From positions 146,957-210,956 of the forward strand of contig JAIOPO010000005.1 in assembly GCA_021413905.1 (NCBI GenBank): a DNA stretch of 64,000 bases. Direction: 5' to 3'. Below the pieces are notes generated by a model. The model worked only from the letters and a program-made list of their open reading frames with translations, did no database searches and was not told where the DNA came from. The position numbers were made by a program, and so were the translations under genes. Source of the stretch: Candidatus Nomurabacteria bacterium. GTDB lineage: Bacteria > Patescibacteriota > Minisyncoccia > Phycocordibacterales > UBA9973. Positions 15,704 through 49,272 of the stretch are shown in pieces; position 1 is the stretch's first letter, and the number at the start of each line of letters is the position of its first letter.

Positions 15704-15964
15704 ATGTACTACTTTTATGTATTAAGATTTCATAAAAATAAAAAACTATATTATGGTTTTACAAATGATTTAAAGCGCAGAATAAAAGAACATAGAGCTG
15801 GAAATTCTGATTTTAGTTCTAAAAATGGAATATTTGACTTAATCTTCTATGAAGCTTATATTAGTAAAGAGGATGCTAGAGAAGCAGAAAAATATTTCAA
15901 AACAGGACATGGAAGAGAGGTTTTGAAAAATAAATTGAAAAATTATTTTGGAGGCGTCGCATAG
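15704..15964 (+). CDS. GIY-YIG nuclease superfamily protein (YhbQ/URI-like, about 86 aa); its 3' end overlaps the 5' end of tRNA-Ser.
   Basis: MYYFYVLRF...KLYYGFTNDLKRRIKEHRAG is a GIY-YIG core. The ATG at 15704 is preferred over the upstream TTG at 15656. The stop codon TAG lies inside GGAGGCGTCGCATAG, which is the start of the tRNA. Confidence 0.75.
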   Translation: MYYFYVLRFHKNKKLYYGFTNDLKRRIKEHRAGNSDFSSKNGIFDLIFYEAYISKEDAREAEKYFKTGHGREVLKNKLKNYFGGVA

Positions 15965-16036
15965 TGGTTTAGTGCACCTGTCTTGAAAACAGGAGTACCG
16001 CAAGGTACCGTGAGTTCGAATCTCACCGCCTCCGCC
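15950..16036 (+). tRNA. tRNA-Ser (anticodon TGA) with a long variable arm.
   Basis: GGAGGCGTCGCATAGTGGTTTAGTGCACCTGTCTTGAAAACAGGAGTACCGCAAGGTACCGTGAGTTCGAATCTCACCGCCTCCGCC; the anticodon loop is CTTGAAA. Confidence 0.85.
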
Positions 16037-16112
16037 TTGACAACCTGTTAGTTTCGTGTCCCGACTGCCTGAGGTGGCAGTGCGACCCGAGTGCTACCAT
16101 GGTTGTAACAAA

Positions 16113-16146
16113 AACGGAGCATAATGTGCTCCGTTTTTGTTTTTTC
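16113..16146 (+). terminator. Intrinsic terminator downstream of tRNA-Ser.
   Basis: aACGGAGCAtaatgTGCTCCGTtttttgttttttc. Confidence 0.65.
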
Positions 16147-21993: not shown

Positions 21994-22049
21994 ACATCTA
22001 CAGGAATGACGCAATACCGCTATGGAGTCCAGAGCGTCCCGAGTGGTAG

Positions 22050-22060
22050 GTGTTGGTAAC
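22050..22060. promoter_or_regulatory. Recombinase-associated conserved core GTGTTGGTAAC; putative attachment-site core at the R1 site.
   Basis: The same 11-mer recurs at 27696, 39189, 54793 and as GCTGTTGGTAAC at 58454. The left arm ...GATGACGCAA..AGAGCGTCCC is shared with the R3 site. Confidence 0.45.
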
Positions 22061-22083
22061 TTTTTTCTTGATATACTCACTAT

Positions 22084-22497
22084 ATGTCATACAAAGAACG
22101 AGCGCAGAGTTGGTACAAGCGTGCGATAATGGAAACCGATGAGTTCCTAAAATTCGTCCTACTCTTCATTGCAGTAGAAGCATTGCTTGAAGGGCAAAAA
22201 ATATATGCACTGAAAACCAAACCTAGATTATTAGAGACAATCGACCCGAAAGACATATCGATTCTTCGAGAGGCCTTAGATGCAAGACCACACCAAAATA
22301 TGGACGCGGATGGAGACCAAACATGGAACGGTAGATTGGAAAGTGATACGGACTGGATTGGAATTATTCTATTCTTAGCCCGAGCGAGAAATAATCTTTT
22401 TCATGGCGATAAGGCGTACGACGAGGAACGCGATATCTTTATTGTTACATACGGGAATAAAATGATTGAACCGATCGTAAAAAATTTACTTTCATAA
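22084..22497 (+). CDS. HEPN-like domain protein; putative RNase toxin or Abi component.
   Basis: The C-terminal R-x4-6-H motif ARARNNLFHG sits on a predicted all-helical 137-aa protein. Confidence 0.4.
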   Translation: MSYKERAQSWYKRAIMETDEFLKFVLLFIAVEALLEGQKIYALKTKPRLLETIDPKDISILREALDARPHQNMDADGDQTWNGRLESDTDWIGIILFLARARNNLFHGDKAYDEERDIFIVTYGNKMIEPIVKNLLS

Positions 22498-22821
22498 AAT
22501 ATCAAAAGGATTAAACTCTCGAATTTCTTTTTCAAGTCGATCCATTTCTTTCAGCATCCGCATCATGATTTTAATCGACCGCTTTTTCTTCTGTTCACCA
22601 TGTAGCCCAAGCAAATACTCGGCATCTTCATCGGGGATGAATGACGCGAGCGATATATATGAGGCGCACAAAAGTTGAATGCGCTCCTTGATGGCGCGTT
22701 TCAAATTCCGTTTCGATTCCGGCAAATCCGAAATTTTGTTGAACGCGTATCTTGGCTCGGATTCGTTATTATCGTATTTAAAATGTTGGCTGGCCTTAAT
22801 GACCTCTTCGATGTCGTCCAC
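22492..22821 (-). CDS. Hypothetical protein of 109 aa.
   Basis: ORF only; it is adjacent to the HEPN gene and overlaps it. Confidence 0.35.
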   Translation of the reverse strand: MDDIEEVIKASQHFKYDNNESEPRYAFNKISDLPESKRNLKRAIKERIQLLCASYISLASFIPDEDAEYLLGLHGEQKKKRSIKIMMRMLKEMDRLEKEIREFNPFDIL

Positions 22822-22879
22822 ACCCCATTGGATGACACAGACGGCACAGAATACCTAAGCCTGTCGGAGTTAGTAACTA

Positions 22880-23473
22880 TTACTCGCAAATTCCAGAAGA
22901 TACTTGCAAAGTTCCGCTATCAGAAAAAATACACATCGGGAGTTTCGTCGTATGGTCGTAGACGGTGATACCGCTTGGCTGACCTGTTGATCCGACCGTC
23001 AATTGCCCCATGCTCGCAGTTCCAAATCCTGCGGTGCCGGAAACAGACAAATCGGTATTGATGGTTAGAGAATTTACCGTCCCCGTATCAGTCCTAAAAT
23101 CACTAGCGGAAAGACTGCTCGCGCTGAAGTAGGTTGACGACCCATCAGTCGCGGCTGGAATATAGATAGACTGCAATCCTTGCTTGTCTGGATCATACGT
23201 TAGATTGTTTGAAAATCTGAGAAGTGCGGAGAGTTTATCTTTCGAAATCGTTTGCTCGATCAGCTTATTAAAAACACCTGTGGCGAGATTTGAAATGGAA
23301 TCGTCGGTATAAACTTTCGGGGGAACAATCTTAACTGGAGTCACCTTGCTCTTTATCGGAGCGACCACCTGTTTTGTCGCACTGCCTGTGACGGCGAATG
23401 CCGTGTGTATTTCCGTTGCTGAAAATACAGTGATTAATAAAATGGTAATTGATAGTAATAAAGTTTTACGCAT
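22880..23473 (-). CDS. Secreted hypothetical protein with a signal peptide.
   Basis: MRKTLLLSITILLITVFSATEIHTAFA signal peptide, followed by a Ser/Thr-rich mature part. Confidence 0.55.
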   Translation of the reverse strand: MRKTLLLSITILLITVFSATEIHTAFAVTGSATKQVVAPIKSKVTPVKIVPPKVYTDDSISNLATGVFNKLIEQTISKDKLSALLRFSNNLTYDPDKQGLQSIYIPAATDGSSTYFSASSLSASDFRTDTGTVNSLTINTDLSVSGTAGFGTASMGQLTVGSTGQPSGITVYDHTTKLPMCIFSDSGTLQVSSGICE

Positions 23474-23631
23474 CGCTTAATTTAATTGCAAATAGTTTGC
23501 ATTAGTAATAATGATCCGAGTGTAATCCACAGATAATAGTAAGTCAAGTAGTTGCAAACAATTTGCATTTGTATTATTATAGCCTTGCTGTTGTCATTTC
23601 ACTTATAAGCTATTAATAACTAATAAAAGTC

Positions 23632-24558
23632 ATGAATAAAAAATATGCAATCGGGCTTGTTCTCGGAATAGCGTTCATTGGGATTCTTACTTTGGTAATA
23701 AAAGATGGAAAACATGCCCCATCGGCATCGGTCGGTAAAATACAGGTTTCCACGAGCTTCTATCCTCTCTACTACTTCGCAAGCCGTATTGGTGGCGATA
23801 AAGCAGTCGTGACAAACATCACGCCCGCCGGAGCAGAGCCGCACGACTATGAGCCGACCCCGGGTGCTATCGCGGGAATTGAGAATAGCAAACTTCTCGT
23901 ACTCCAAGGTACTGGTCTTGAGGCATGGGGTGCTGATGTAAAAAAGAATATCGACCCGAACAAAACAACCGTCATCACTGTCGGACAAGACTTGATGACT
24001 CAGAACGTGGTTGAAGATGGAAATACTGTCATTGATCCGCATACATGGCTCGCACCGACGCTTGCCGAGAAAATGGCTGACAAGATTCTTGCTGGATATG
24101 TTTCTGTCGATCCTGCGAATGAAGCGTACTACCAAGAGAATGAGGCACAACTCAAAGCCGAGCTTGCTAGTCTTGATTCTGAATACAAACAAGGACTTGC
24201 AAGCTGTGCATCGAAAGACATTGTTACCTCGCACGCCGCCTTCGGATATCTCGCTACCGTCTATGGTCTCAATCAAGTTCCAATTTCAGGTGTTTCGCCC
24301 GATGCCGAGCCATCACCCAAACAGCTCGCCGATGTTGCCGATTTTGTAAAAAAGAACGGCGTGAAGTATATTTTCTTCGAGAGCTTGGTTTCTCCAAAGC
24401 TGTCCGAGACAATCGCTCGCGAAACAGGTGCACAAACGATGGTGCTTGATCCCATTGAGGGCATCACCCCCGAAGACCTCGCGAAAGGTATAGACTATAT
24501 GAGCGTCATGCGAAGCAATCTGCATAATCTTGAAACAGTACTCGAATGCAAAGCGTAA
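23632..24558 (+). CDS. znuA: Metal (Zn/Mn) ABC transporter substrate-binding protein, ZnuA/TroA family.
   Basis: Signal or anchor sequence, FYPLYYFASRIGGDKAVVTNITPAGAEPHDYEPTP, and the TroA-like fold pattern. Confidence 0.8.
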   Translation: MNKKYAIGLVLGIAFIGILTLVIKDGKHAPSASVGKIQVSTSFYPLYYFASRIGGDKAVVTNITPAGAEPHDYEPTPGAIAGIENSKLLVLQGTGLEAWGADVKKNIDPNKTTVITVGQDLMTQNVVEDGNTVIDPHTWLAPTLAEKMADKILAGYVSVDPANEAYYQENEAQLKAELASLDSEYKQGLASCASKDIVTSHAAFGYLATVYGLNQVPISGVSPDAEPSPKQLADVADFVKKNGVKYIFFESLVSPKLSETIARETGAQTMVLDPIEGITPEDLAKGIDYMSVMRSNLHNLETVLECKA

Positions 24559-25319
24559 ACCATTCAAAAAACATAGTTGAAGTTAAAAACGTATCATTTT
24601 CATATGGGTCTGAACTCGTGCTTGAAAACATCAGCTTCGATGTCCACGAAGGTGATTATCTCGGTATAGTGGGTCCTAATGGTGCGGGCAAGACGACACT
24701 CTTGAAAATCATGCTTGGGCTTTTGAAACCCGCGAGCGGTTCAATCAGCTTGTTCGGTACGTCACTATCGGATTTCAAGGACTGGCGAAAGATCGGCTAT
24801 GTTCCGCAAAAAGCAACTAATTTTGATTCCGGTTTTCCGGTGAGTGTGTACGATGTCGTCCTGATGGGATGTTACAACTACAAAGGTCTGTGTTGTCGTA
24901 TCAATACGGGAGACTGTTCCATTGTGGAACGCGTACTAAAGCAGGTTGGCATGTGGGAGTATAGAGATCGTCTGATTGGCGATCTATCCGGTGGACAGCA
25001 ACAGCGCGTGTTCATTGCCCGCGCTCTTGCGACCGAACCGAAAATAATCTTTCTTGATGAACCAACTACCGGAGTAGACAAGAAAATGCACGACGAATTC
25101 TATGACTTGTTGCGTACACTCAACCGTGATGCGGGATTGACGCTTGTGCTTATCTCTCACGATATCGAAAAGATTACCGAAGAAGCCATGCACATCGCCT
25201 GCATTGATCGAACACTTGTCTGTCATACAAGCCCCGAAGAATTTTTGAAGGAAAGCGAATCAAAAAATATGTTTGGTGAAAAAGTTAAAATCGTTAGTCC
25301 GCATCATCACGCCCATTAA
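24546..25319 (+). CDS. znuC: Metal ABC transporter ATP-binding protein.
   Basis: Walker A GPNGAGKTT, the LSGGQQQR signature and Walker B IIFLDEPT. Confidence 0.85.
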   Translation: MQSVNHSKNIVEVKNVSFSYGSELVLENISFDVHEGDYLGIVGPNGAGKTTLLKIMLGLLKPASGSISLFGTSLSDFKDWRKIGYVPQKATNFDSGFPVSVYDVVLMGCYNYKGLCCRINTGDCSIVERVLKQVGMWEYRDRLIGDLSGGQQQRVFIARALATEPKIIFLDEPTTGVDKKMHDEFYDLLRTLNRDAGLTLVLISHDIEKITEEAMHIACIDRTLVCHTSPEEFLKESESKNMFGEKVKIVSPHHHAH

Positions 25320-25323
25320 ATAT

Positions 25324-26118
25324 ATGAATCTTTTTCAGTACACTTTTATTCTTCACGGACTCTCGGCGGGAATCATCGTTGCGGTCATCGCGCCGATGGT
25401 AGGTATTTTTCTTGTGCTTAAACGGTATTCGCTCATTGCCGACACGCTTGCACACGTTTCGCTCGCAGGAATTGCTATTGGTTTACTTGCAGGCATTAAT
25501 CCGGTCTTTACCGCGCTCGGTGCGACCGTGCTTGGTTCGCTCGGTGTAGAACGCCTCCGAATGTCGAAGAATGTCTACGGCGAATCAGCATTGGCGCTCT
25601 TTCTCTCAGGTTCGCTTGCGCTCGCAATTGTGTTGATCTCACTTGCTCGCGGATTCAATACCAACCTCTTCAATTATCTCTTCGGAAGTATTGTGACTGT
25701 CACAATCGGCGATGTGTACACAATCCTTTGCTTGGCGTTTGTCGTGATTGCAATCCTTGCGTTTTTTTACAGAGAAATAATATATGTCACTTTCGATGAG
25801 GATGCGGCGCAGGTTTCGGGTGTTAACACACGACGAATAAACACTATTCTCATTGTTCTCGCGGCACTTGTTGTGTCGCTCTCCATCCCAATTGTCGGAG
25901 TGCTTCTCATTGGAGCATTGATTGTCATCCCTGTCGTTTCCGCGCTTCAGCTCAGAAAGAACTTCATGAAAACAATTCTGTACGCGGAGATAATTTCCAT
26001 CTTCTCTGTCATTATCGGTATCATCGCCTCGTTCTATTTGAACATTTCCGCCGGAGGCGCGATTGTACTTCTCATGCTCGCAATTTTCTTTGGTATCTAT
26101 ATACTTAAAAAGAGATGA
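25324..26118 (+). CDS. znuB: Metal ABC transporter permease.
   Basis: Polytopic membrane protein immediately downstream. The ORF is open from 25273, but the MNLFQY start at 25324 avoids overlap with znuC. Confidence 0.8.
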   Translation: MNLFQYTFILHGLSAGIIVAVIAPMVGIFLVLKRYSLIADTLAHVSLAGIAIGLLAGINPVFTALGATVLGSLGVERLRMSKNVYGESALALFLSGSLALAIVLISLARGFNTNLFNYLFGSIVTVTIGDVYTILCLAFVVIAILAFFYREIIYVTFDEDAAQVSGVNTRRINTILIVLAALVVSLSIPIVGVLLIGALIVIPVVSALQLRKNFMKTILYAEIISIFSVIIGIIASFYLNISAGGAIVLLMLAIFFGIYILKKR

Positions 26119-26540
26119 AAGCAAAACAAGACTTCAACCAAATACTTCGTACTGCCGGACTAAAATGTACACCGCCTCGCTTGGCAGTGCTCGCTTTTCT
26201 CGCGAGTGGCGGACACTATATTAGTGCACAGGAAATTCATGAAAAATTGGGTAAGAAAAAAGGACTTGACCTTGTAACCGTCTACAGAACGCTCGCTTCA
26301 TTTGAGAAGGCGGGCATCATTAAGCGTGTCGATGTACGCAAGGATGCGATATACTATGAATACAATGAAGGACATCACCACCACATCATTTGCACGAAAT
26401 GCGACAAAGTCGCTGAATTCAGTAATACCGGCGACGAAGCACTTATTGAGAAAGCTCTCAAGCAAGTCAAAGGTTTCAGCTCTATCTCGCACCACTCATT
26501 CGACCTCTTCGGGCTTTGCGACACCTGTGCGAAGAAATAA
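26115..26540 (+). CDS. zur: Fur-family metalloregulator, probable Zur.
   Basis: Winged helix plus the HHHHIICTKCDKVAEF ... CDTC metal sites; its stop overlaps the znuB frame. Confidence 0.8.
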   Translation: MKAKQDFNQILRTAGLKCTPPRLAVLAFLASGGHYISAQEIHEKLGKKKGLDLVTVYRTLASFEKAGIIKRVDVRKDAIYYEYNEGHHHHIICTKCDKVAEFSNTGDEALIEKALKQVKGFSSISHHSFDLFGLCDTCAKK

Positions 26541-27696
26541 GTTAGCGGTTACTCTCGCAGTTTTTGGTCTGCTTGTTTTTTGCGCGAGCGCGATTCCTCA
26601 CAATGCTCACGCTCAGGAACTTATGCAAGATAAGATAACGGTAGTTAGAGCGCGTGTTGATTCCGTTGTTACAAAAGTTCCCGAGGATGTGAAAGGGCTT
26701 GATGTCGCATCTCCCGATCAAACGGTGACGGCTACAATACTTGAGGGCGATCAAGCAGGGCAACAAACCACTTTTGATAATGACTACGTCCAACTGAAAA
26801 GTGGCGATACGTTTTTCCTCAATATCACTGTTCGTGCCGAAGACCAGAGTGTTTATTACAATGTCGAAGATCCTGACAGACTGCCGATACTTGGAATCTT
26901 TGCACTAATTTTTGTTCTCCTTGTGATTCTCATTGGTGGCAAGCAAGGTGTGCGCGGACTTGTCACACTGCTCGGCAGTTTCGTCCTTATTCTCTATGTT
27001 CTCGTTCCGGGCATCCTTCACGGCTATTCTCCGATTCTGATCGCCATCGGAGTATCTTCACTCATTATTATCATCGGTTCATATGTTACGCATGGATTCA
27101 ACAAGACGACATCGTGTGCAGTAGCTGGTATGATTGCCACCGTCATCGTGACAGGAATTCTTGCATACATTGCTGTACACGCAGGACGATTCACTGGATA
27201 CGGCACGGAGGAAGCCACATATCTCAGTATGAATGCGCGCGGGCATATAGACATGCTCGGACTTTTACTCGGAGGAATCATGATCGGGCTTCTCGGCGTA
27301 CTCTATGATGTCGCTATCAGCCAAGCAATAACTGTCGAGGAACTGCATCATATTGCTCCGCATATTGGGAAAGGCGTTATTTTCAAACGCTCCATGCGTG
27401 TCGGGCGCGAACATATTGGTGCACTCGTGAACACTCTTGCAATCGCATATGTCGGTGCCTCACTTCCGCTCTTACTTTTGTTCGCTACACCGCCAGTCGA
27501 TGTCATGCTCACGGTGAATCGAGAAATCTTTGCCGCAGAAATTATCCGTATTCTCATCGGTAGTATTGGACTTGTGCTTGCTGTGCCAATCGTGACGGCT
27601 CTTGCCGTAATGGTTTTGGTTAAAGTAAAAAAAGTTGATGACTCGACAAAAAGGGAGGAGTATAAGGCACTTGAGCATTATTCGCATCATCACTAG
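26527..27696 (+). CDS. YibE/F-like polytopic membrane protein with an N-terminal signal peptide.
   Basis: GTG start giving RRNKLAVTLAVFGLLVFCASAIPHNAHA, followed by more than 8 TM helices. The longer ORF that begins at 26302 overlaps zur and was rejected. Confidence 0.6.
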   Translation: MRRNKLAVTLAVFGLLVFCASAIPHNAHAQELMQDKITVVRARVDSVVTKVPEDVKGLDVASPDQTVTATILEGDQAGQQTTFDNDYVQLKSGDTFFLNITVRAEDQSVYYNVEDPDRLPILGIFALIFVLLVILIGGKQGVRGLVTLLGSFVLILYVLVPGILHGYSPILIAIGVSSLIIIIGSYVTHGFNKTTSCAVAGMIATVIVTGILAYIAVHAGRFTGYGTEEATYLSMNARGHIDMLGLLLGGIMIGLLGVLYDVAISQAITVEELHHIAPHIGKGVIFKRSMRVGREHIGALVNTLAIAYVGASLPLLLLFATPPVDVMLTVNREIFAAEIIRILIGSIGLVLAVPIVTALAVMVLVKVKKVDDSTKREEYKALEHYSHHH

Positions 27697-27706
27697 TGTT
27701 GGTAAC
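27696..27706. promoter_or_regulatory. GTGTTGGTAAC core (putative att core) overlapping the TAG stop codon of the YibE/F gene; followed by the right arm CTCGCTACACAATAA.
   Basis: cactaGTGTTGGTAACctcgctacacaataatc; the right arm is similar to those at 39200 and 58466. Confidence 0.45.
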
Positions 27707-27762
27707 CTCGCTACACAATAATCCCGATCCGAGCTAAGATGGTCGAACCTCGAAAAATGAGG

Positions 27763-27768
27763 TATAAT
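27763..27768 (+). promoter_or_regulatory. -10 box TATAAT driving leader RNA copy 1.
   Basis: gaggTATAATttg lies 20 nt upstream of the GACC 5' motif. A -10 box is positioned equivalently before copies 2 and 3. Confidence 0.5.
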
Positions 27769-27788
27769 TTGTTCACAAATTAATAGGT

Positions 27789-27943
27789 GACCTAACCCCG
27801 AAAGGCCTTGTGGCTTCTCGGATATGGTCAAAAAACCGCTACAGTATAAAAGACTCCTCGTCAGAGTCACTGTAGCGGTCGTATCCGGAAACGGGTATGG
27901 GTTTAGCCGAAAGGCTGAATCGCGATGGCGAGGAGTCTTTTAT
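27789..27943 (+). ncRNA. Structured leader RNA copy 1 of the novel motif: promoter-proximal, covarying helices, GAAA tetraloop hairpins and a terminal intrinsic terminator.
   Basis: GACCUAACCCC[ccga..ucgg]GGAUAUGGUC AAAAAA [ccgctacagt AUAAAAGACUCCUCGUCAGAGUC actgtagcgg] UCGUAUCCG-GAAA-CGGGUAUGG [agcc-GAAA-ggct] ..GGCGAGGAGUCuuuu. The 3' segment CGAGGAGUC is complementary to GACUCCUCG in the apical loop. Confidence 0.6.
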
Positions 27944-27988
27944 CAACGAGACTCTTGGTTCATTCGTAAAACAAAACCGCTACAGTGT

Positions 27989-28459
27989 ATGAATGACCTC
28001 AACAAGTTTTTTGCCACCACAAGTGGCAAGTGTGCGTTCGCAATCATTTTTTTAATAATCGGTTTCTTCGGCGGTATGCAGTACAAGGCATACCAGATCA
28101 AGAGCGTCATCACTGATTCGCTCATGCCTGCGATTACGAGCAGTTTGGATGACGCGAGAACGAAAGCGAGCGACGCGAAAATCCGTGCAATCGTTTCGTC
28201 CGCTCGGGCACAAGGCGAACTGTATTACTCGTCTGGCGGCAACGATACAACCTACAAGGGAGTTTGTTCTGATTCTGAATTTACGCATTTGATTGATGGC
28301 GCGAATAGCACGCCGACCTGTAACGAAGCCAGAGACGGTTCCGCATGGGCAGTCGCCATTCCAATGAGCGACTCATCAACCTATGCTTGTTCTGATTCCA
28401 CTGGCGCATCCATCGTCATTAATTATCCGCTCGGTTCCGCTAGTTCTTGCACGAAGTAG
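27989..28459 (+). CDS. Pilin-like or pseudopilin-like small secreted protein with an atypical N-terminus.
   Basis: Hydrophobic N-terminal helix AFAIIFLIIGFFGG, then ...SSARAQGELYYSSGGN, which resembles the N-terminal helix of Gram-positive/CPR type IV pilins. The C-terminal Cys pairs fit, but the canonical G-FTLIE prepilin site is missing. The in-frame upstream extension from 27824 overlaps the RNA and was rejected. Confidence 0.4.
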   Translation: MNDLNKFFATTSGKCAFAIIFLIIGFFGGMQYKAYQIKSVITDSLMPAITSSLDDARTKASDAKIRAIVSSARAQGELYYSSGGNDTTYKGVCSDSEFTHLIDGANSTPTCNEARDGSAWAVAIPMSDSSTYACSDSTGASIVINYPLGSASSCTK

Positions 28460-28462
28460 TAT

Positions 28463-29167
28463 ATGAAAGACATCCAACAATTTCTTTCAACTATGACGGG
28501 TAAGGTTATTGCAATCGTTCTTGTCCTTGGAGTTGGTCTGTTCATCGGATCGCGCGGGGCGACGCACAAAAACGAGCCTGTCACGGAAACACAGACACAA
28601 GTTGCGGTCGCCGATTCGACCCCGACCGCTCCTGTCGCCGTAGCCGAGACCGCGCCGATTCAGAAAACGACTGCCACTCCGAAAAAATCCGCTCCAGTCG
28701 CGCCCACTCCCGCACCAGTCATCACTCAGCCTGATCCAAAACCGGCACCATCAAAATTGCCAACGCGCATCGACGGCCTCGCAAGCATCAACCCGCTCGC
28801 CGCGCTTCAAGAAAATTGGGATACAGATATCGAGAAGGACGGTCCTGTCATAGATATCTCGTACCTCGATAGCAACGGCGACATGATTTCAAACGATGCC
28901 ACCGCCAAGATGCCCATCTCGGCGGATGTGAAGCTCTACGCCGGAAGCGATCCGCTTTCCAAGAAAACAAAACTTGTTTACTCCGGTCATTTTGATTCCA
29001 ACCAGATCGTCTACAATTTTTCTCCGAAGATTCGCATTCCCGAAGAACAAATAAACATCGATCCGAATACCGATTATGATATCGGACTTGCCACTGTCAC
29101 CATCCACACTCCCGAGCAAGGCGACTTCTCGGCAACTGATTCATTCGTAGTTCTCTACGAGAAGTAA
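28463..29167 (+). CDS. Membrane-anchored secreted protein with a Pro/Thr/Ala-rich linker.
   Basis: N-terminal TM helix, then a low-complexity linker of TPTAPVAVAETAPIQKTTATPKKSAPVAPTPAPV. Confidence 0.5.
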   Translation: MKDIQQFLSTMTGKVIAIVLVLGVGLFIGSRGATHKNEPVTETQTQVAVADSTPTAPVAVAETAPIQKTTATPKKSAPVAPTPAPVITQPDPKPAPSKLPTRIDGLASINPLAALQENWDTDIEKDGPVIDISYLDSNGDMISNDATAKMPISADVKLYAGSDPLSKKTKLVYSGHFDSNQIVYNFSPKIRIPEEQINIDPNTDYDIGLATVTIHTPEQGDFSATDSFVVLYEK

Positions 29168-29170
29168 TAT

Positions 29171-29473
29171 ATGGTCTACGCAATTCTAATTTTCGCTCTC
29201 TACTTTCTTCCGTCCATAAACGCGTACTGGAAAAAGAAACGTAATAAAAGTGCAGTGCTGACGCTCAACTTCTTTCTCGGTTGGACTGTCATCGGGTGGA
29301 TCGTTGCGCTCATTTGGTCGTCCACCAATGACGCTCCGGCGACTGTTGTCATCGAAAAGAATACGCCAGTTAAAAGTACTTCAAACGAATTGGTCGAACT
29401 TCACGCGCTCAAAGAAAAAGGTGTCATTACGCACGAGGAGTTCGAGGCTGGTAAAAAGAAAATTCTAGGGTAA
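29171..29473 (+). CDS. SHOCT-domain membrane protein.
   Basis: N-terminal TM helices plus the C-terminal LKEKGVITHEEFEAGKKKILG SHOCT motif. Confidence 0.65.
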   Translation: MVYAILIFALYFLPSINAYWKKKRNKSAVLTLNFFLGWTVIGWIVALIWSSTNDAPATVVIEKNTPVKSTSNELVELHALKEKGVITHEEFEAGKKKILG

Positions 29474-29507
29474 TATCAAGAATATCTAAAGAAAAAGTAA
29501 AGAAAAT

Positions 29508-30191
29508 ATGAAGACCAAAATCGTAGCAATCTCAATACTCATACTGTCCATATTCGGAGCAACTCCTGCACTGGCTACTTTTGGTATTCAAACTAAGACG
29601 AGCCACTGTGTTGCTGGAGCGACTCCCGACACCGCTTGTTCACCGGGTGCGGTTCTCACTACCGATGCAAATATCGTTTGCGTTTCCGGCTACACAAAGA
29701 AAGTCAGAGACGTTACGACTGCAACCAAGAAAAAGGTGTTCAAGGAATACGGACTCGCATGGAGTACTCGCTCGAATTATGAAGTCGATCACATCATCTC
29801 GCTTGAACTCGGCGGTTCAAATGACATTTCAAATCTCTTTCCAGAGTCGTACACTATATCGAACGGCGCACGCGTGAAAGACACTCTCGAAAACTATCTC
29901 CATTCCCAAGTCTGCTCTGGTGCGATCTCACTCACCGGCGCTCAAAAAGCAATCTCCGGCGATTGGACTGTTGCATACCAAAATTGGAAGAACCCGAAGT
30001 CTGCCGCGAAAACAGTGCAGACAAAATCGACCCAGACGACTATGCCATCCACCGATCCTGCCGTAAAGAAAAGTACCTCCGGTATCTGTCATGCAAGAGG
30101 TACGCGCTACTATGCTTCAACGACTCACTTCACATCCTACACCACCGTCCAAGCTTGCCTAGACAGCAGAGGACGGCTACCATTGAACTAG
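29508..30191 (+). CDS. Secreted HNH endonuclease-domain protein.
   Basis: Signal peptide MKTKIVAISILILSIFGATPALA; the HNH motif is YEVDHIISLELGGSNDISNLFPE. Confidence 0.55.
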   Translation: MKTKIVAISILILSIFGATPALATFGIQTKTSHCVAGATPDTACSPGAVLTTDANIVCVSGYTKKVRDVTTATKKKVFKEYGLAWSTRSNYEVDHIISLELGGSNDISNLFPESYTISNGARVKDTLENYLHSQVCSGAISLTGAQKAISGDWTVAYQNWKNPKSAAKTVQTKSTQTTMPSTDPAVKKSTSGICHARGTRYYASTTHFTSYTTVQACLDSRGRLPLN

Positions 30192-30193
30192 AC

Positions 30194-30739
30194 ATGTCCA
30201 CTTTCACTATCCCATTTCCTGAATACGACATCGCAGAAATTCTACAAAAAGAATTCTCGAAGAAAGAGAATTTTTCCGTTGCCATTCCACTGTCCCGTCA
30301 GCAGAAATTCTACGATCTGCTTCTTGTAAACGGAGCGACAAAGAAATCCGTCACCATCCAAGTCAAAAGCTCACGCACCTACCTCGGCTCTCCAAAGAAC
30401 GAGTACCAGTATTACTCATGGCTCAATTATTTCGATATCAAAGACAATTACAGCGACTTCTACTTCGTCTACATGACGTATCCTCAGCTCGACAAGGACT
30501 TCACGCCCCGCGCGAAGTGGGAGCGCATGATCCTCGTATTCAACCAGAAAGAAATGGTTGAACTGCTCAGTAACGTAAAAACCAAAGCCGGAAAGCAGGA
30601 ACGCTTTTTCTCTTTCGGATTGAACGTGACCGACGGCAAGATTTATGGAGCACGCGGATTCGGACATCTCGACAAGAAGGAATTCTCAAAAAATCTGCTC
30701 GCGAACAAAATCGGAGAAATTCGAAAGAAGCTCAGCTAG
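30194..30739 (+). CDS. Hypothetical protein of 181 aa.
   Basis: ORF starting at the ATG right after the upstream stop. The longer ORF in the track, starting at 29963, overlaps the previous gene. Confidence 0.4.
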   Translation: MSTFTIPFPEYDIAEILQKEFSKKENFSVAIPLSRQQKFYDLLLVNGATKKSVTIQVKSSRTYLGSPKNEYQYYSWLNYFDIKDNYSDFYFVYMTYPQLDKDFTPRAKWERMILVFNQKEMVELLSNVKTKAGKQERFFSFGLNVTDGKIYGARGFGHLDKKEFSKNLLANKIGEIRKKLS

Positions 30740-32194
30740 TTAACCAAACAACAACCCCGGCTTCTTGCCGTATTTTTCAATAATCTGAATCATGGAGATG
30801 GAGAAAGCGTCCACGAGGTCGTCATGGTTCTCCTTGCCGAAGCCGACAAGTTCGTCAATGAGTTCACCGCAACCCTCATTGTAAAAGAAAACCTGCTTTT
30901 TCTTGATCGGCACCGCCGCGATTCGCAGACGCGACGCCTTGTCGGTGACACTCGGCACGCCAATGATGTCGTGGCTCTCCTGCATAAGCTGGACGATGGC
31001 TTCTTGCATGCCGTTGTTTTCCATGAATACTTTGACGGGTACTTTGTTTACCTGCTCCGCGGCAATGGAGTTTTTTAGATGTTCGAGAAGTTCCTTTACT
31101 CCGACTTTCGTATGGAACGGATATGGCTGAACGTACACGCGGAGGTTGTCGCCTCGGTTGTAAACATAGAGAACAACAAAGGCCGGAAAGTCAGCACTCT
31201 CTTTTTGCGAGATGGCGAGGTCTACGCCGATACAGATGCGATCCGGCTTTCCTTTTGGAAGCTCATCGTAGTACTGGATGTCATCAAGCGTTACAATCTG
31301 TTCCTCGCTCGCGACAATCTTCAGCATGTACTCACGCAACCATGCGATTTCATCCATCGTCTTTTCATGCTCGGCTTCAATCGACTCCGGCGTTGGATAT
31401 TTACTCGGCCATAACGGAACGCCTTTCGCATCGACGATTGGGTATTCGCGAAAAACAGGGTTCATACTTTTCAGTTCGCCCCGCTCAATTTTCTTTTCGA
31501 GCCGTCTGAGCACGGAGTCCTCGTGAAGCAAGTTACCGACGGCTATAATACGAGTCTTTTTCGTACCGGCAGGTATTACGTCTCCTGTCAGCCAGTTGAA
31601 CGTCTTGTTACGACCCTCTCTCGTTCGCACCGAATCCAAGTCCTCGATGTCGTCAAGGATGATGAGGTCGGGGCGGTGTTGGTTGTGCCTTGCACCGCGA
31701 ATACTTTGTTCGGTCGAACAGATCATGATCTTCACATTCAGTTTCTTTATGATTATCGCCGTCGCGTTGCCGAGACTGTTCCGCTCTTCCTCAAATGGTC
31801 CTAAGTCTTTTTTCAGAAGCTCGTTGTGCAAAAGTTGCTCCTTTATATTCGACAAGTGTTGTCGGGCTTTCTGCTCGGTCTGACCGCACAAGACAATGAA
31901 CTTTTTCTGCTGTACGCCGAGTATCGACCACAGAACATATGCCGTCGAGACGAGCGTGGATTTTGCCGAGCCACGGAACGCAACAATGACGGCAAGCTTG
32001 ATCTTGTCGTCTTCAAGAATACGGAACATCTCCTCGTGAAAAGGCGCAGTCTCATACTCCATGTATTGAGACATGTATATCGGGAAGAAGAACTCGAAGC
32101 TGTTGCGGACGACTTCCTTGCGGAAGCGTTGATCCTTGAGTATCTTGCCGAAGATGTCGTCCGAGCTATTCTCTTTTTTGCGTTTTTTTGACAT
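30740..32194 (-). CDS. Phage terminase large subunit-like protein (TerL), module A.
   Basis: Walker A AFRGSAKST and Walker B LIILDDIE. The C-terminal RNaseH-like nuclease Asp residues are present at ICIGVDLAISQ and HDDLVDAF. It is paralogous to 40449-42047. Confidence 0.65.
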   Translation of the reverse strand: MSKKRKKENSSDDIFGKILKDQRFRKEVVRNSFEFFFPIYMSQYMEYETAPFHEEMFRILEDDKIKLAVIVAFRGSAKSTLVSTAYVLWSILGVQQKKFIVLCGQTEQKARQHLSNIKEQLLHNELLKKDLGPFEEERNSLGNATAIIIKKLNVKIMICSTEQSIRGARHNQHRPDLIILDDIEDLDSVRTREGRNKTFNWLTGDVIPAGTKKTRIIAVGNLLHEDSVLRRLEKKIERGELKSMNPVFREYPIVDAKGVPLWPSKYPTPESIEAEHEKTMDEIAWLREYMLKIVASEEQIVTLDDIQYYDELPKGKPDRICIGVDLAISQKESADFPAFVVLYVYNRGDNLRVYVQPYPFHTKVGVKELLEHLKNSIAAEQVNKVPVKVFMENNGMQEAIVQLMQESHDIIGVPSVTDKASRLRIAAVPIKKKQVFFYNEGCGELIDELVGFGKENHDDLVDAFSISMIQIIEKYGKKPGLLFG

Positions 32195-32591
32195 GGTTTC
32201 TAATCGACGAGAGCTTCAACGCCGCCTTTATTTGCTTCCGTTCCTCCTTAGTGAGTGCTTCTTCCTCCGCAAGTCCTTTCACTTCGAGCGTGTCGCCGTA
32301 GCGATCGCTGTGCGTCTTCAGATACAAAGCAATAGCCTTAAACTCCTTGTCGCCGATGAGCGAGAAGAGCTGGGTTTCCGCGATGTCGCACATGAAATTG
32401 CGGCCTTCTTCAAGCGCGGCATCCATCGCTTTCTCGAAGGACTTCTTCTCCTTGACCCATCGGTAAATGGTCGCGCGGGAGAGCTTCACCTTTTGGCACG
32501 CCTGCTCTATCACCGGCGTGCGTTTCAGTTGCTCGATGAACGCCTCCTTGAGCGCATCCTGCCGAGCTTTAATTGAATCTTTCCTACTCAT
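32166..32591 (-). CDS. Small HTH protein, putative terminase small subunit, module A.
   Basis: HTH KLSRATIYRWVKE; it overlaps the TerL start and is paralogous to 42028-42423. Confidence 0.45.
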   Translation of the reverse strand: MSRKDSIKARQDALKEAFIEQLKRTPVIEQACQKVKLSRATIYRWVKEKKSFEKAMDAALEEGRNFMCDIAETQLFSLIGDKEFKAIALYLKTHSDRYGDTLEVKGLAEEEALTKEERKQIKAALKLSSIRNHVKKTQKRE

Positions 32592-33348
32592 ATATTTTTT
32601 CGACTTTTAGCTTGGTAAGTTTTTCCCATCGGTCGATGATGGTCTGGCAGTACTCGGTGTCCATCTCGACTCCGATACAGATGCGCTTCGTCTGCTCGCA
32701 GGCAAGGAGCGTCGTGCCACTTCCGAGGAAGCCATCGAACACGACATCGCCGATGCGCGTGCTGTTGAGTACGAGTTGGCGTATTAATCCAATTGGCTTC
32801 GTCGATGGATGCCAAGGACTGCGGTTCGGTCGCGGATGCACGATGACGCTCTTGTCTTTCGATTTGAGAAATTCGTGCGTGCCGTACCATCCGTAGGCGA
32901 TCAGTTCGTGTTGCGGTGCGTAGTCCATGCGACCGATGACGGCATGCGTTTTGACCCAGATGAGCAGTTGCGTGAACTTCATTCCGGCGGCAAGCATGCC
33001 GTTACGAAGCGCGAATATCATCTTGTCGCAGTTGAAGATGTAGAAGGCGTTCTTGCGTTCGAGATGCGGTCGAATTGCTTCGATCCAGTCACGAGAGAAT
33101 GCCTCATATTCGGCATCACTCTGCAAATGATCATTCGCGATTGTCTTGTCTTTGAGCAAAGGCTTGAGAGCTTTCTTACTTTCAGTCAGATTCACACCGT
33201 ATGGCGGATCTGTAATCACTGCCTTGATCTTCCTGTTAGCGACGAGTCTCGCGACCATGTCCTTGTTTCGGGAGTCCGCACAGAGAAGTAAGTGATTTCC
33301 GAGGCGAAAGGTATCGCCGTATTTAATTGAGTTTTGTGATTGGGTCAT
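32584..33348 (-). CDS. DNA methyltransferase (N6-adenine / N4-cytosine, beta class).
   Basis: Motif IV VITDPPYG precedes motif I DGFLGSGTT. It is paralogous to 62235-62984. Confidence 0.85.
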   Translation of the reverse strand: MTQSQNSIKYGDTFRLGNHLLLCADSRNKDMVARLVANRKIKAVITDPPYGVNLTESKKALKPLLKDKTIANDHLQSDAEYEAFSRDWIEAIRPHLERKNAFYIFNCDKMIFALRNGMLAAGMKFTQLLIWVKTHAVIGRMDYAPQHELIAYGWYGTHEFLKSKDKSVIVHPRPNRSPWHPSTKPIGLIRQLVLNSTRIGDVVFDGFLGSGTTLLACEQTKRICIGVEMDTEYCQTIIDRWEKLTKLKVEKIYE

Positions 33349-34648
33349 TGGATATTTTCTTAAATCTGTTAATGATTACTTGGCAGAACACGGGATCCCA
33401 CTCGCAGACGTACGCCGTGCGATTGAGCTGTTCGCATGCCGACAGCATGCTTCCCGAACCGGCCGTCATGTCGAGAACGATGTCGCCGGGCTTTGTACAC
33501 CTACGCAAAATTTTCTCGTGAATTGAGGGCGATTTTTGGGTCGGGTGTTCCATCTCACTTCCGGCCATACGCTTGACCATCCAGATATTGAGCAAGTCGA
33601 GGATGTCTTCGATGAGACGGTTGCCGGTACTGACTTCTTTGTTCTGAACCTCGTTGTAGTTCTTGACCTTGTCCGAGAGGTATGGACGACCCATCGTGCC
33701 GTAGACGACGAATTCTGTTACTTTGTTGAAAGCGTTTTTAGGCGTGGGCGAGGCGTTGTCCTTAATCCAAATACAGAGACGCTTCGAGTCAATCTTCAAT
33801 TCCTTGAACACTGTCTGAAAGAGCCAGACGTAGCGTTCGTCGCACCACCATGCCTGATGGCAGTCCGGCTTTGAGACGGCGAGCGCGTTCTGCATGATGA
33901 CCTGCACGAATGCGCGGTACGCATCGTCCGTCATATTGTCTTTGGTTTTGCCGCCATACCCACCGTTCTTTTTGCCGACACCTTTGTCGTAACTGAGATC
34001 AATGTTGTAAGGTAAATCCGTATCGACGAGGTCTGCTCTCGCGTCTCCCATTAATATCTTTGCCGTCTCGGGGAGCGTTGCATCCCCACAGATTAATTTG
34101 TGGCGACCGAGTTGGAATATATCGCCCATCTGTATCTCCGTCTCTTTCGCTTTCTCGACTTCATCCTCCTCGTTGAAGTTTTCGTTTGCTTCGACTTCGA
34201 GGTTGTCGTCGAAGATGTTACTCAAATCCATTGAGTCGAATCCGGCATTCAAGAGTTCGCCGAGATCGAAGTCTCGGGCGAGAGCCTCCCAGTCCCAAGA
34301 AGCCCCCGACCTATTTGACGTAAGTAGGTAGTCTTTGAACTCTGCCTCTGTTAATTTACGATTCGGTACGCGCACTTCAATTTCTTCCTCGCCTCTGCCA
34401 AGCAGGGAGAGCGCGAGGACGCGCTGATTACCGGCGACGAGCGTGCCGTCCGTGTTGATACATGGCAGTTCTGCGACGTTGAATTTTTTGAGACTGCGCT
34501 TGAGTCCTTCGAGTTGAACGGAGGAAAGCGTACGCGGATTTTTTGAATATGGTACGAGCGAATCCACTTTTCGCTTTTCTGTGTGCCATTCTAATTTTTG
34601 TTGAGACATAGGCTGTTTACTTTTGTTTCTTATTAATAAAGAAGACAA
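33323..34648 (-). CDS. ParB-like nuclease N-terminal domain fused to a DNA methyltransferase.
   Basis: ParB/Srx-like VPYSKNPRTLS...GNQRVLAL. The MTase motifs are TDLPYN and LDMTAGSGSM. It is paralogous to 42410-43690 and 62971-63999. Confidence 0.8.
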   Translation of the reverse strand: MSSLLIRNKSKQPMSQQKLEWHTEKRKVDSLVPYSKNPRTLSSVQLEGLKRSLKKFNVAELPCINTDGTLVAGNQRVLALSLLGRGEEEIEVRVPNRKLTEAEFKDYLLTSNRSGASWDWEALARDFDLGELLNAGFDSMDLSNIFDDNLEVEANENFNEEDEVEKAKETEIQMGDIFQLGRHKLICGDATLPETAKILMGDARADLVDTDLPYNIDLSYDKGVGKKNGGYGGKTKDNMTDDAYRAFVQVIMQNALAVSKPDCHQAWWCDERYVWLFQTVFKELKIDSKRLCIWIKDNASPTPKNAFNKVTEFVVYGTMGRPYLSDKVKNYNEVQNKEVSTGNRLIEDILDLLNIWMVKRMAGSEMEHPTQKSPSIHEKILRRCTKPGDIVLDMTAGSGSMLSACEQLNRTAYVCEWDPVFCQVIINRFKKISNDPITKLN

Positions 34649-34786
34649 AATAAAAGCCGCATTTCTCGATAGAAAGACTTAACGTACCAACTCTTAAGTT
34701 GACGCGCTTAGGCTTTTATTCGAGTTATGCGGTTTACGTTCTAGACGTACACGGCCTAACTGGTTGTCTTTGTGCCAATCAATTCT

Positions 34787-35248
34787 CTAGGAGAACTGAG
34801 CGGCTATGAATTCTTGCACAAGATTCGGATACTTTTCGAGAACTTCGGAGAATTCCATTTCTTGAATAGTCTTGCCGAATTTCTCGCGCTCCGCGTCGTC
34901 CAGTATTCCCGTGAGGGAAGGGACTTCGTCGAAGCTTACTTCTTTCGGAAGGAAATCCGGATTGTTCCTGACTTCGTTCCCAATATATTTTTCGACTTTG
35001 GCTTTGGCGACAAGGTCGCCGGTTTCTCCATCAAAAAATGGTTTCTCTAATTCAATGAACATTGCACTCTGCGGTTTGGACAGCGAGAACTTTTTCTCTG
35101 AGAGATTTACCATGGGGTGTCGACTGCACTCCGCAACACTACCTCTTTTAATTTGGAGAGAAACTTTTTTCGCATCCATATTCCAATTATATGCGGCTCC
35201 GTGACATACGCAATCCCCGGGTGATCGAAACGACACGGTTAGAAACAT
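34787..35248 (-). CDS. Hypothetical protein of 153 aa.
   Basis: ORF only. Confidence 0.35.
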   Translation of the reverse strand: MFLTVSFRSPGDCVCHGAAYNWNMDAKKVSLQIKRGSVAECSRHPMVNLSEKKFSLSKPQSAMFIELEKPFFDGETGDLVAKAKVEKYIGNEVRNNPDFLPKEVSFDEVPSLTGILDDAEREKFGKTIQEMEFSEVLEKYPNLVQEFIAAQFS

Positions 35249-35309
35249 TTGACAATACTTAGTGAAAAAGTAAAGTGTAAGATTTTTCCGACTCTAATTT
35301 TCAGAAAAA

Positions 35310-35990
35310 ATGCTAAAATATTTCTACATGCAATTCGACACAAGTCACTTACTCATCGGAATTTTGAAAGGAATGTGGGCGTTCAAAAAACTCTGGCTAC
35401 TCGCCGGAGGCGTTTTTCTCCTCGCGCTCGCGTTGCAAGTGGTGACCGATTTGCTCAACCGCAAAAGTAGAATTCGCTGGTTCTTCAGCAAGAAAAAGAT
35501 TTTAGATTTACAGCGACTCACTCCATCCGAGTTTGAATCGTACACAGCCGAGTTGTTTCGCTCCCTCGGTTACAAGACGCGAGTCGTCGGCGGTGTCGGT
35601 GACGGGGGCATAGATGTTGAAGCCGAGAAGGACGGAGTTGTCCACTACATCCAGTGCAAGAAGTTCATCACACGCCAAGTGCCGGTCGGTGCAGTACGAG
35701 ACTTCTACGGCGCAATTGCCGACAAGTTAAACGGAGGGAAGGGTTACTTCATTACCACAAACATCTTTACTCTGGATGCCGAGAAATTCGCCGAGGGTAA
35801 GCCGATTGAACTCGTCGACAGATTCAAGCTCATGGACTACCTGCGTCTCGCCAAGGTCGATGCGCCTGTCGGCACCACCAGTTCTGTCTGTCCGAAGTGC
35901 GGCGGACGGCTCGTTGAGCGATCCGGCAAATTCGGTCGTTTCCTTGGCTGTTGCAATTACCCGAAATGCTCTTATACTGTAAAGGCGTAG
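35310..35990 (+). CDS. Membrane-anchored Mrr-like restriction endonuclease catalytic domain with a C-terminal topoisomerase-type zinc ribbon.
   Basis: N-terminal TM LWLLAGGVFLLALALQVV. The Mrr_cat-like segment is GGVGDGGIDVEAEKDGVVHYIQCKKF. The C-terminal zinc ribbon is CPKCGGRLVERSGKFGRFLGCCNYPKC. Confidence 0.6.
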   Translation: MLKYFYMQFDTSHLLIGILKGMWAFKKLWLLAGGVFLLALALQVVTDLLNRKSRIRWFFSKKKILDLQRLTPSEFESYTAELFRSLGYKTRVVGGVGDGGIDVEAEKDGVVHYIQCKKFITRQVPVGAVRDFYGAIADKLNGGKGYFITTNIFTLDAEKFAEGKPIELVDRFKLMDYLRLAKVDAPVGTTSSVCPKCGGRLVERSGKFGRFLGCCNYPKCSYTVKA

Positions 35991-37381: not shown

Positions 37382-37390
37382 AACTAAAAA

Positions 37391-39134: not shown

Positions 39135-39188
39135 ACATATATTAATGACAGAAAAAGAGCCTTTTGCTAAGGATTAATCATTGGCAAC

Positions 39189-39199: not shown

Positions 39200-39285
39200 T
39201 TCGCTTAACAAAAATAGTTATATGCGATAGGATTGATGGATTAATACAGACATATGCTGTATTATGTATATATAATTTAATAACC

Positions 39286-49254: not shown

Positions 49255-49272
49255 AAAGTAATTATATCAAAA

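Follow-up and report, generated by a model that had tools for sequence, protein, structure and literature searches.

What does a short motif mark when it recurs, always in the same orientation, at one module boundary after another of a bacterial locus that carries several recombinase genes? The question is raised by a stretch of 64,000 nucleotides from a Candidatus Nomurabacteria bacterium (contig JAIOPO010000005.1 of assembly GCA_021413905.1, positions 146,957 to 210,956; hereafter the window, meaning the whole stretch that was analyzed), in which three large serine recombinase (LSR) genes, R1, R2, and R3, stand to the left of copies of an 11-bp motif, the core. The answer toward which we lean, with a little more belief than doubt, is that this motif is the shared core of recombination sites that the neighboring LSRs would use. 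Within that reading, the motif most likely marks the places where LSRs inserted modules into an island joined to a tRNA-Ser gene, and not the ends of three prophages lying in ordinary chromosome.

Five cores, their arms, and the adjoining recombinases

The exact core, GTGTTGGTAAC, is found four times in the window (sites A to D, from left to right), and a variant, CTGTTGGTAAC, forms site E; all five copies are on the + strand and each of them lies at a module boundary (the coordinates of these and the other features are collected in table 1). Homology between the paralogous modules begins or breaks off precisely at the core. With at most one mismatch allowed, 5 core matches are observed against 0.76 expected, and none of 100 shuffles gave 5; the 9-mer GTTGGTAAC has no further occurrence on either strand in the whole 64 kb. 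These exact matches and shuffles bear out the fivefold repetition reported in a preliminary description of this DNA, together with its positions at 22050, 27696, 39189, and 58454 (the G of the “GCTG...” then given for the last copy being position 58453) and the overlap of site B with the stop codon of the YibE/F gene, as the core starts there on the G of the TAG; the remaining copy had been placed at 54793 and actually starts at 54792. Since the junctions at A, B, D, and E are reproduced at 100% identity by independent Logan contigs of run SRR15633504, two of which match 16007-31993 and 53367-64000 at 100%, they are not artefacts of a single assembly. The core itself has the form of a half-palindrome, GTTnnnAAC, which is doubled with an 11-bp period at site C and in three related contigs (L129, L010, and L056).

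The genes to the left of sites A, C, and D are genuine LSRs, in agreement with the earlier claim that serine recombinases adjoin the sites. Indeed, each of the three proteins carries the Resolvase (PF00239), Recombinase (PF07508), and Zn_ribbon_recom (PF13408) domains; the motif Y-A-R-K-S...E-R-Q, in which we take the serine of YARKS to be the nucleophile from what is known of the family, is invariant in them and in three related recombinases (P0034, P0038, and P0108); and the nearest solved structure is that of the SPbeta integrase SprA/YokA (E = 1e-10, residues 27-354). R1 and R3 are 89% identical and R2 is about 60% identical to either, and no Pfam match to a tyrosine recombinase or a transposase is found between 16 and 64 kb. 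It is also worth mentioning that the homologues of R3 form at least 120 database clusters at 75-97% identity, with sources named Uhrbacteria, Nomurabacteria, Kaiserbacteria, Niyogibacteria, and Paceibacterota, which points to an unusually conserved family and to a recent spread of the platform described below across lineages of the Candidate Phyla Radiation (CPR).

The sequences on the two sides of the core fall into few types. The left arms of A and D agree at 73% of positions over 60 nt, against 53 ± 5% for random 60-mers of the window, with the consensus (A/G)ATGACGCAA..GGAGTC(C/T)AGAGCGTCCC-N9-core, whereas their right arms are unrelated (47%), so that the conserved left arm and differing right arms described earlier at R1 and R3 hold up over this length. 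This left arm, hereafter the P arm, is the 5′ region of the recombinase gene. The right arm common to B, C, and E, hereafter the P′ arm, reads core-(C/T)(T/C)(C/T)(G/A)CT(A/T)(A/C)ACAA(T/A)AA and includes an AGCTAAG-like box and a TATAAT-like -10 element, after which a LOOT RNA begins. On a crude 60-nt measure of the right arms, the B/E pair alone stands out (68%); the previously proposed right arm shared by 27696, 39189, and 58454 and leading into a promoter and leader RNA is thus real, the leader being LOOT, with the qualification that C shares blocks only. Similarly, the proposal that the site at 39189 (site C) joins an R-type left arm to a leader-type right arm stands as to the right arm, but the left arm is R2's own 5′ region and not the arm of R1 and R3.

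Four LOOT RNAs (Rfam RF03000) are found in the window, at 75.2-82.1 bits against a gathering threshold of 46.4 and over model positions 1-121, and three of them come after a core and P′ arm (B, C, and E). Each of these three is followed by a short operon and then by a convergent module with a methyltransferase and a ParB-methyltransferase, the first two convergent modules also holding a gene for the terminase large subunit (TerL). While Rfam lists LOOT as a small RNA, it appears in the window and its relatives as the first transcribed element of an island operon beside a recombinase site; our literature searches found no paper on the context of LOOT, on this island family, or on serine-recombinase elements of the CPR, and nothing of direct relevance on cassette systems based on serine recombinases. 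The fourth LOOT, at 12834-12975 (-) and 76.7 bits, lies outside the island, has its own promoter without a core upstream, and leads into a 468-aa open reading frame (ORF; 11373-12779, -) that belongs to neither a Pfam nor a PHROG family; LOOT can therefore occur independently of the recombinase site.

Empty and filled sites in related islands

In all the R1/R3-type relatives that we examined, the start of the recombinase gene is preceded by the P arm, AATGACGCAA...AGTC(C/T)AGAGCGTCCC (pattern GACGCAA..AGTC.AGAGCGTC), which is followed by a spacer of 11 or 13 nt and then by GTTG(G/A)(T/C)AA(C/A/T). Among recombinases that have diverged by about 10% or more, the P arms are kept and the sequence after the core is unrelated from one relative to the next.

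The recombinases P0038 and P0034 differ at 3 residues, and their contigs display two configurations of the same site. In the P0038 contigs (n = 16), the P arm, a single GTTGGCAAC, the P′ arm, and LOOT follow one another, a configuration that we call “empty”; in the P0034 contigs (n = 24), the order is P arm, GTTGATAAA, genes for a cation ATPase and an LMWPc phosphatase, CTGTTGGTAAT, P′ arm, and LOOT, and the site is said to be “filled.” When L089 is compared with L099 by BLASTN, two collinear blocks overlap on exactly GTTG (L099rc 7393-7396), with a 3,036-bp insert in L089. Further inserts are a single gene of 218 aa in L129, flanked by GTGTTGGTAAC and CTGTTGGTAAC; four genes in L118, flanked by GTTGGCAAC and GTTGGTAAC; and, in L131, whose recombinase is 97% identical to R3, a gene for a 917-aa AAA_21 protein flanked by the GTG.. 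and CTG.. versions of the core as at D and E. This 917-aa protein sits in the slot of cargo 2, the window segment between D and E, and is unrelated to it. Single-core, empty sites are those of window site C, L099, and L002, and the same layout is seen with a different core in L004 and L005. Because the insert junctions overlap on GTTG and three further inserts have a core on each side, the core is probably, on these alignments, the crossover site; where the two flanking copies differ, GTTG(G) is the part that they have in common, so that a crossover, if any, would fall within it.

The different core just mentioned belongs to R2-like LSRs (L004, L005, and L007), which have CGTC(A/G)CATACT(C/T)G in the same position. 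L004 and L005 run on from it into a LOOT-type arm homologous to that of the window, and L007 diverges right after the core. The motif thus follows the type of recombinase and P arm rather than the LOOT promoter. The LOOT unit can also be missing: in three IMG/VR contigs (L006, L003, and L010; gene order methyltransferase, 147 aa, TerL, core, recombinase), 3 nt separate the stop codon of the terminase large-subunit gene from the core and there is no LOOT unit at all, which makes the unit of LOOT and two genes itself optional at this docking site. Two contigs of one Joint Genome Institute (JGI) sample with the same recombinase, L104 and L105, are set apart by an inversion of the ParB-methyltransferase segment and by 282 nt of novel sequence, and at the end of L105 a 70-nt piece of a downstream gene is repeated in inverted form; these differences may reflect a real rearrangement or an assembly artefact and are not used as evidence here.

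If the core lies inside the island, where does the island meet the chromosome? About 15 kb of the P0034 island is constant (ParB-methyltransferase module, LOOT, cargo, recombinase, SNF2 helicase, and a 159-aa gene), and its context changes at the 3′ end of tRNA-Ser, with five different tRNA-Ser genes and a breakpoint between ...CTCCGC(A/C) and CTAAGAACCTGG. In the window, tRNA-Ser is followed by TTGACAACCTGTTAG... and then by a conserved element of about 80 nt, and the tRNA-Ser arrangement also occurs in L118, L109/L110, and L129. The last of these is bounded on both sides, as an 8.5-kb island running from tRNA-Ser(GGA) to a host adh_short gene, and the LSR is its only recombinase with a Pfam match, which suggests that the same LSR may also make the tRNA joint. 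Everything to the right of 16037 in the window belongs to a composite island that abuts tRNA-Ser at its 3′ end, the true chromosome joint being 16036/16037. Because this joint recurs internally at 48757-48779, we infer two islands in tandem at tRNA-Ser, island I (16037-48756) with the R1 platform and island II (48757 to beyond 64000) with the R3 platform. The second joint, J1, is also exactly where a 93%-identical relative, contig L134, begins; the far right end of either island was not located within the window.

The platform common to the related islands consists, in order, of tRNA-Ser, the 80-nt element, a few cargo genes, an LSR gene pointing to the tRNA, the P arm, one core, the P′ arm with its promoter, LOOT with its operon, and then, mostly, the convergent terminase/methyltransferase module. 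On our reading, a DNA circle with a matching core would have recombined into the single docking site between the LSR gene and LOOT, with a crossover within GTTG, yielding P arm, core, insert, core, and P′ arm. Island I would accordingly consist of the R1 platform, an integrase-less zinc-uptake cargo (22061-27695) flanked by A and B, and a complete R2-type element, M1 (27696-39199), whose ends B and C would be attL-like and attR-like and whose target would have been the docking site of island I; site C would then connect the P arm of R2 with the P′ arm that belongs to the LOOT2 module of island I itself. Island II would consist of the R3 platform with one integrase-less cargo (54803-58453) between D and E. 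More tentatively, and with fewer chances of being right than of being wrong, one may see here a CPR-wide LSR platform for gene capture, in which one docking site takes up integrase-less cassettes (for metal transport, defense, and resistance-like functions) and whole recombinase-bearing elements serially and the same enzyme family anchors the island to tRNA-Ser through a second, different site.

Alternative explanations of the core

Several observations weigh against a recombination core. Classical attB and attP sites of LSRs need about 40-50 bp with recognizable half-sites. Here, no clear imperfect dyad is visible by eye around the central dinucleotide, and the arms other than the P arm have no common motif; only at site C (TTGGCAAC-GT-GTTGGTAA) do the arms match by eye as inverted repeats, at 6/8 positions, as they do in L056, and not at A, B, D, or E. 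The spacer of 9-11 nt between P arm and core (9 nt at A and D) differs at nearly all positions between A and D, although R1 and R3 are 89% identical, which is odd for a protein-bound half-site. Homology between site D and the contigs L131 and L134 goes on for 44 nt past the core (to about 54846), covering a promoter-like arm, and sets in again 8 nt ahead of core E, with unrelated genes in the interval (E = 2.1); the swap points in this trio are not at the cores, and the three would represent either cassettes with a conserved head of core and promoter or cargo exchange by recombination in conserved flanks. The tRNA-Ser joint is only loosely core-like (TTGACAAC), so that one enzyme would need two classes of site. 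Moreover, a test for circularity by terminal overlap was negative in all 11 whole contigs and no circular form was found, and no empty chromosomal site is seen either (see the YibE/F loci below). Finally, all five cores are upstream of, and co-oriented with, rightward transcription units, as would also be expected of a regulatory motif.

The promoter-like arm just mentioned reads TTTATTTAA(A/G)G...TAAAAT, and in L131 and L134 the ATG of the cargo comes about 7-8 nt further on; such a short distance suggests leaderless transcripts. A hairpin and T-run to the right of D had been considered as a displaced YibE/F terminator; it is not called by a terminator scan, and the arm is the promoter-like block conserved in L131 and L134.

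The most serious competitor takes the core for a cis-regulatory element, such as an operator or a site for an activator, that stands at the 5′ boundary of rightward units, with cargo swapped by homologous recombination in the flanks. It has its merits, as all five cores are followed after about 30-60 nt by a -10-like box and have the orientation of the downstream unit; D, L131, and L134 conserve the P arm, the core, and the 44-nt promoter-like arm whatever genes follow; a variable spacer between P arm and core fits two abutting functional units; and GTTnnnAAC doubled at an 11-bp period (C, L129, L010, and L056) is met in many operators. We nevertheless find it unlikely, since it leaves unexplained why the motif is single in empty and double in filled sites and why the breakpoints of L089 and L099 fall on GTTG. 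Besides, neither the island's other promoters nor the LOOT at 12834-12975, which has no recombinase context, contain the motif; the motif varies with the type of recombinase and P arm while the LOOT promoter arms stay homologous; and identity at 11/11 positions in four sites is tighter than is usual for operators.

A second alternative is the model of the preliminary description, in which three or four independent LSR prophages occupy chromosomal attB sites in tandem with host DNA between them. Hybrid arms at every core would fit this model, as would a YibE/F gene that is intact up to its stop at core B and chromosomal in other CPR genomes, and a core-like double motif found just downstream of YibE/F in L056, with no recombinase near. 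We nonetheless hold it to be improbable. It would need three attB sites with an identical 11-bp core within about 9 kb of “chromosome,” and integrated relatives keep P arm, core, and P′ arm contiguous, unlike a site split by chromosomal integration. The chromosome joint of the supposed tandem of elements with intervening host DNA is not a core but the 3′ end of tRNA-Ser at 16036/16037, with a second copy at 48757. The segments 22061-27695 (Znu/Fur/YibE-F) and 54803-58453, which had been taken for host DNA, have their equivalent in the inter-core segment of the P0034 island, which is constant while the host context varies among five tRNA-Ser loci. Nor is there a core site at every recombinase end, as R1 has no LOOT-type left end or partner site and its module ends at the tRNA-Ser joint.

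The loci that should reveal an empty attB under this model are those of YibE/F. The relatives of this gene all come from genome bins of Patescibacteria/CPR, and no near-identical sequence exists in the phage, genome, or metagenome collections, the closest YibE/F loci being at 63-73% identity. The comparison with related genomes that had been proposed as a check found no empty attB downstream of YibE/F, in the orientation of the window, in any of 73 loci (43 from genomes and 30 from metagenomes), a weak test at this identity. Neither of the two complete elements had a megablast match among 50,697 phage records, and a degenerate pattern of the tRNA-Ser island end found nothing in viral contigs. 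In L056, the tRNA pair is the same as in the tRNA-Arg region of the window, and next come the core-like double motif and YibE/F: the interval from the YibE/F stop to tRNA-Arg contains GTTACCAAC-AT-GTTGCCAAC (7155-7180), without a recombinase within 13 kb. The double motif is inverted there and comes close to being the reverse complement of site C (TTGGCAAC-GT-GTTGGTAAC); we can only speculate that it is a chromosomal site of past cargo capture, or a target. Overall, the observation of a repeated core survives, and the att-site interpretation does so in part, given genuine LSRs and breakpoints in the core among relatives; the proposed layout does not, and junctions of the P-B′ or P-P′ type are retained only for the element 27696-39199, with its attL/attR-like ends, the segments that had been taken for host DNA being cargo.

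That the duplicated motif is a target-site duplication or microhomology scar of transposition or illegitimate insertion, with the recombinases uninvolved, is very improbable. Short direct repeats do flank inserts, and genes for HNH and GIY-YIG nucleases are frequent in the island and its vicinity, but the cargo segments have no transposase Pfam match, nuclease-driven homing comes without target duplication, the same motif bounds at least 6 independent inserts in different islands, and the flanking copies differ from each other in L089 and L118, unlike a fresh duplication.

Island content and resemblance to known systems

Table 1. Features of the window, from left to right (positions in the window; site letters and module names as in the text)
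Feature	Position	Strand	Basis or remark
tRNA-Ser(TGA); 3′ end is the chromosome/island junction J0	15950..16036	+	ARAGORN, Rfam
Island end: conserved element of about 80 nt (TTGACAACCTGTTAGTTT...GCGACCC...), hairpin, T-run	16037..16146	+	Also follows tRNA-Ser directly in L089, L118, and L129
R1, LSR, 447 aa	20650..21993	-	Pfam; gene call from L128; identical to P0005 (named Candidatus Nomurabacteria)
P arm of site A (5′ region of R1)	21994..22049	.	Alignments; 73% identical to D arm
Core A	22050..22060	+	P arm-core-cargo; motif matching
Cargo 1: three small ORFs, ZnuA/ABC/ABC-3, Fur-family regulator (26181-26540), YibE/F (26527-27696)	22061..27695	.	Pfam; L128 gene calls; identical cores flank
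Core B	27696..27706	+	Cargo-core-P′ arm
Element M1	27696..39199	.	Bounded by cores B and C; Pfam, PHROGs; paralogy with other modules
P′ arm, promoter, LOOT RNA 1 (27789-27921)	27707..27921	+	Rfam, alignment
R2, LSR, 439 aa	37815..39134	-	Pfam; 60-61% identical to R1 and R3
Core C	39189..39199	+	R2 P arm-core-P′ arm, “empty” configuration; half-motif TTGGCAAC-GT- precedes
P′ arm, promoter, LOOT RNA 2 (39286-39411)	39200..39411	+	Rfam, alignment
J1, second tRNA-Ser-type junction	48735..48862	+	48757-48779 matches 16032-16054 at 22/23; own element of about 80 nt, hairpin/T-run
Copper module downstream of R3: cupredoxin, DsbD/HMA, Cu P-type ATPase, CsoR-like repressor	48865..53404	-	Pfam
R3, LSR, 442 aa	53409..54737	-	Pfam, alignment
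P arm of site D (5′ region of R3)	54738..54791	.	Alignments with A arm and relatives
Core D	54792..54802	+	P arm-core-promoter-like arm
Cargo 2: promoter-like arm, then 839-aa and 355-aa proteins without Pfam family	54803..58453	.	Pfam
Core E (CTGTTGGTAAC)	58454..58464	+	Cargo-core-P′ arm
P′ arm, promoter, LOOT RNA 3 (58547-58668)	58465..58668	+	Rfam, alignment
LOOT3 module: 205 aa, 265 aa, then (-) 499-aa ORF, 65 aa, 124 aa, methyltransferase, ParB-methyltransferase	58733..64000	.	Runs past window end

At least 48 kb of the window is island DNA, with genes for zinc uptake, copper resistance, Pycsar/SIR2-type defense, and methyltransferases. M1 comprises LOOT1, a superinfection-immunity protein, an HNH protein, TerL (30740-32194), two methyltransferases, Mrr, another HNH protein, and R2; a degenerate core between its convergent operon and TerL (30735-30750) is unconvincing. 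A defense-type run in island I (44119-48610) holds a LexA-like S24 repressor (44119-44754), a cyclase-like protein with a PycTM effector (Pycsar-like), a DUF2726 protein, and a SIR2-like protein; a MarR-like regulator is encoded at 61857-62231. The copper module, which lies between the R3 gene and J1, has 91-93% nucleotide identity to L134 (6075-10995), a contig from an unrelated run whose docking site holds a run of small resistance-like genes (MBL-fold, nucleotidyltransferase, GNAT, glyoxalase, and InPase). An exact look-up of the 839-aa protein of cargo 2 found no match beyond its source sample. The gene order of the LOOT3 module is that of the P0034 and P0038 islands; the 499-aa ORF that stands in the TerL position (60157-61656) has no Pfam match and is not similar to the two TerL paralogs at 1e-5.

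The element of about 80 nt at the island end (16037-16120 and 48762-48840 in the window, as well as in L089, L118, and L129) reads ...GTTAGTTT(T/C)GTG(A/T)CCC-hairpin-G(G/T)GCGACCC... and is followed by a hairpin and T-run. RNAalifold predicts covarying helices in it, with compensatory substitutions in the inner hairpin and in an outer TTTTGTG/CACAAA helix, and Rfam offers no credible match; the element could be a small RNA that has escaped annotation and is transcribed together with the tRNA, or else the arm of the recombinase.

Further features lie on the chromosomal side of the joint. Just upstream of tRNA-Ser, a small GIY-YIG nuclease gene (15704-15961; Pfam E = 3.7e-14) stands between 34-nt direct repeats (15623-15656 and 15929-15962), the second taking in the first 13 bases of the tRNA, and looks like a homing-type insertion. 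A truncated NYN-domain ORF (10942-11256; profile positions 71-126 of 145) directly after tRNA-Arg(TCT) suggests an old rearrangement boundary. A very long ORF, 1-7800 (-), which extends past the left end of the window and has a 1603-aa neighbor in a similar position in L056, probably encodes a giant surface protein, and an adjacent 209-aa ORF (7860-8489, +) has a weak, sub-threshold match to an IS200-type Y1 transposase (E = 1.2e-4).

To our knowledge, the CPR (Patescibacteria) combine tiny genomes with neither well-described mobile elements nor established genetic tools. In this regard, it is of interest that the islands appear to grow by insertion of modules at one defined site, and that the orphan LOOT RNA is now placed in a concrete genetic context. 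If the LSRs act on these sites, they would explain how adaptive genes are exchanged among such small genomes and would provide defined integrase/att pairs for engineering CPR bacteria; if the capture-platform reading were true, it would amount to a functional analogue of integrons and cassette chromosomes built on a serine recombinase.

Among known systems, composite islands of the staphylococcal/enterococcal cassette chromosome type (SCCmec and ECC, with CcrAB) appear to be the closest analogue. Composite, pseudo-SCC, and recombinase-less SCC units are known. The att sites of ECC have a conserved central motif and variable content (PMC6222049). As in SCCmec and ECC, the window has LSRs, a conserved housekeeping gene whose 3′ end receives the insertion, variable cargo that includes metal resistance and defense, and serial modules with or without their own recombinase, with a short direct repeat at each boundary (here A to E, cargo 1 and cargo 2 being devoid of a recombinase). 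However, its anchor is tRNA-Ser and not rlmH, each module has one recombinase instead of a CcrA/CcrB pair, the core is a docking site within the island, placed between recombinase gene and LOOT promoter, rather than the chromosome joint, and the host belongs to the CPR; the LSRs of the window match the SPbeta integrase only at E = 1e-10.

The phage LSR integrases (SPbeta SprA, phiC31, Bxb1, TP901-1, and A118) have in common with the recombinases of the window their domains, their catalytic motif, and a site beside the integrase gene; hybrid arms after insertion and a short identity in all partner sites are also features of their att sites, and the element 27696-39199 resembles an attL...attR interval. 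Unlike phage att sites, those described here have no evident quasi-symmetric half-sites, their target lies inside another mobile element, integrase-less cargo has the same flanking sites, and integrated islands keep P arm, core, and P′ arm contiguous.

With integrons, the islands share a recombinase gene divergent from a single docking site, cassettes in series, and, in the R3 type, a promoter-like arm that reads into the first cassette. However, the integron recombinase IntI is a tyrosine recombinase, whereas that of the islands is of the serine type; the inserts here measure 0.7-11.5 kb and may even be whole elements, and the cassettes have their own promoters. Inspection of the cargo ends by eye, short of a dedicated search, showed no attC-type hairpin or other structured repeat. 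Finally, the window recalls tRNA-anchored islands that grow by tandem accretion, in that its island starts at the 3′ end of a tRNA gene and a second copy of the joint lies inside (16032-16054 and 48757-48779), as is usual where two islands stand in tandem; such islands normally depend on tyrosine integrases, whereas here only LSRs have Pfam recombinase matches.

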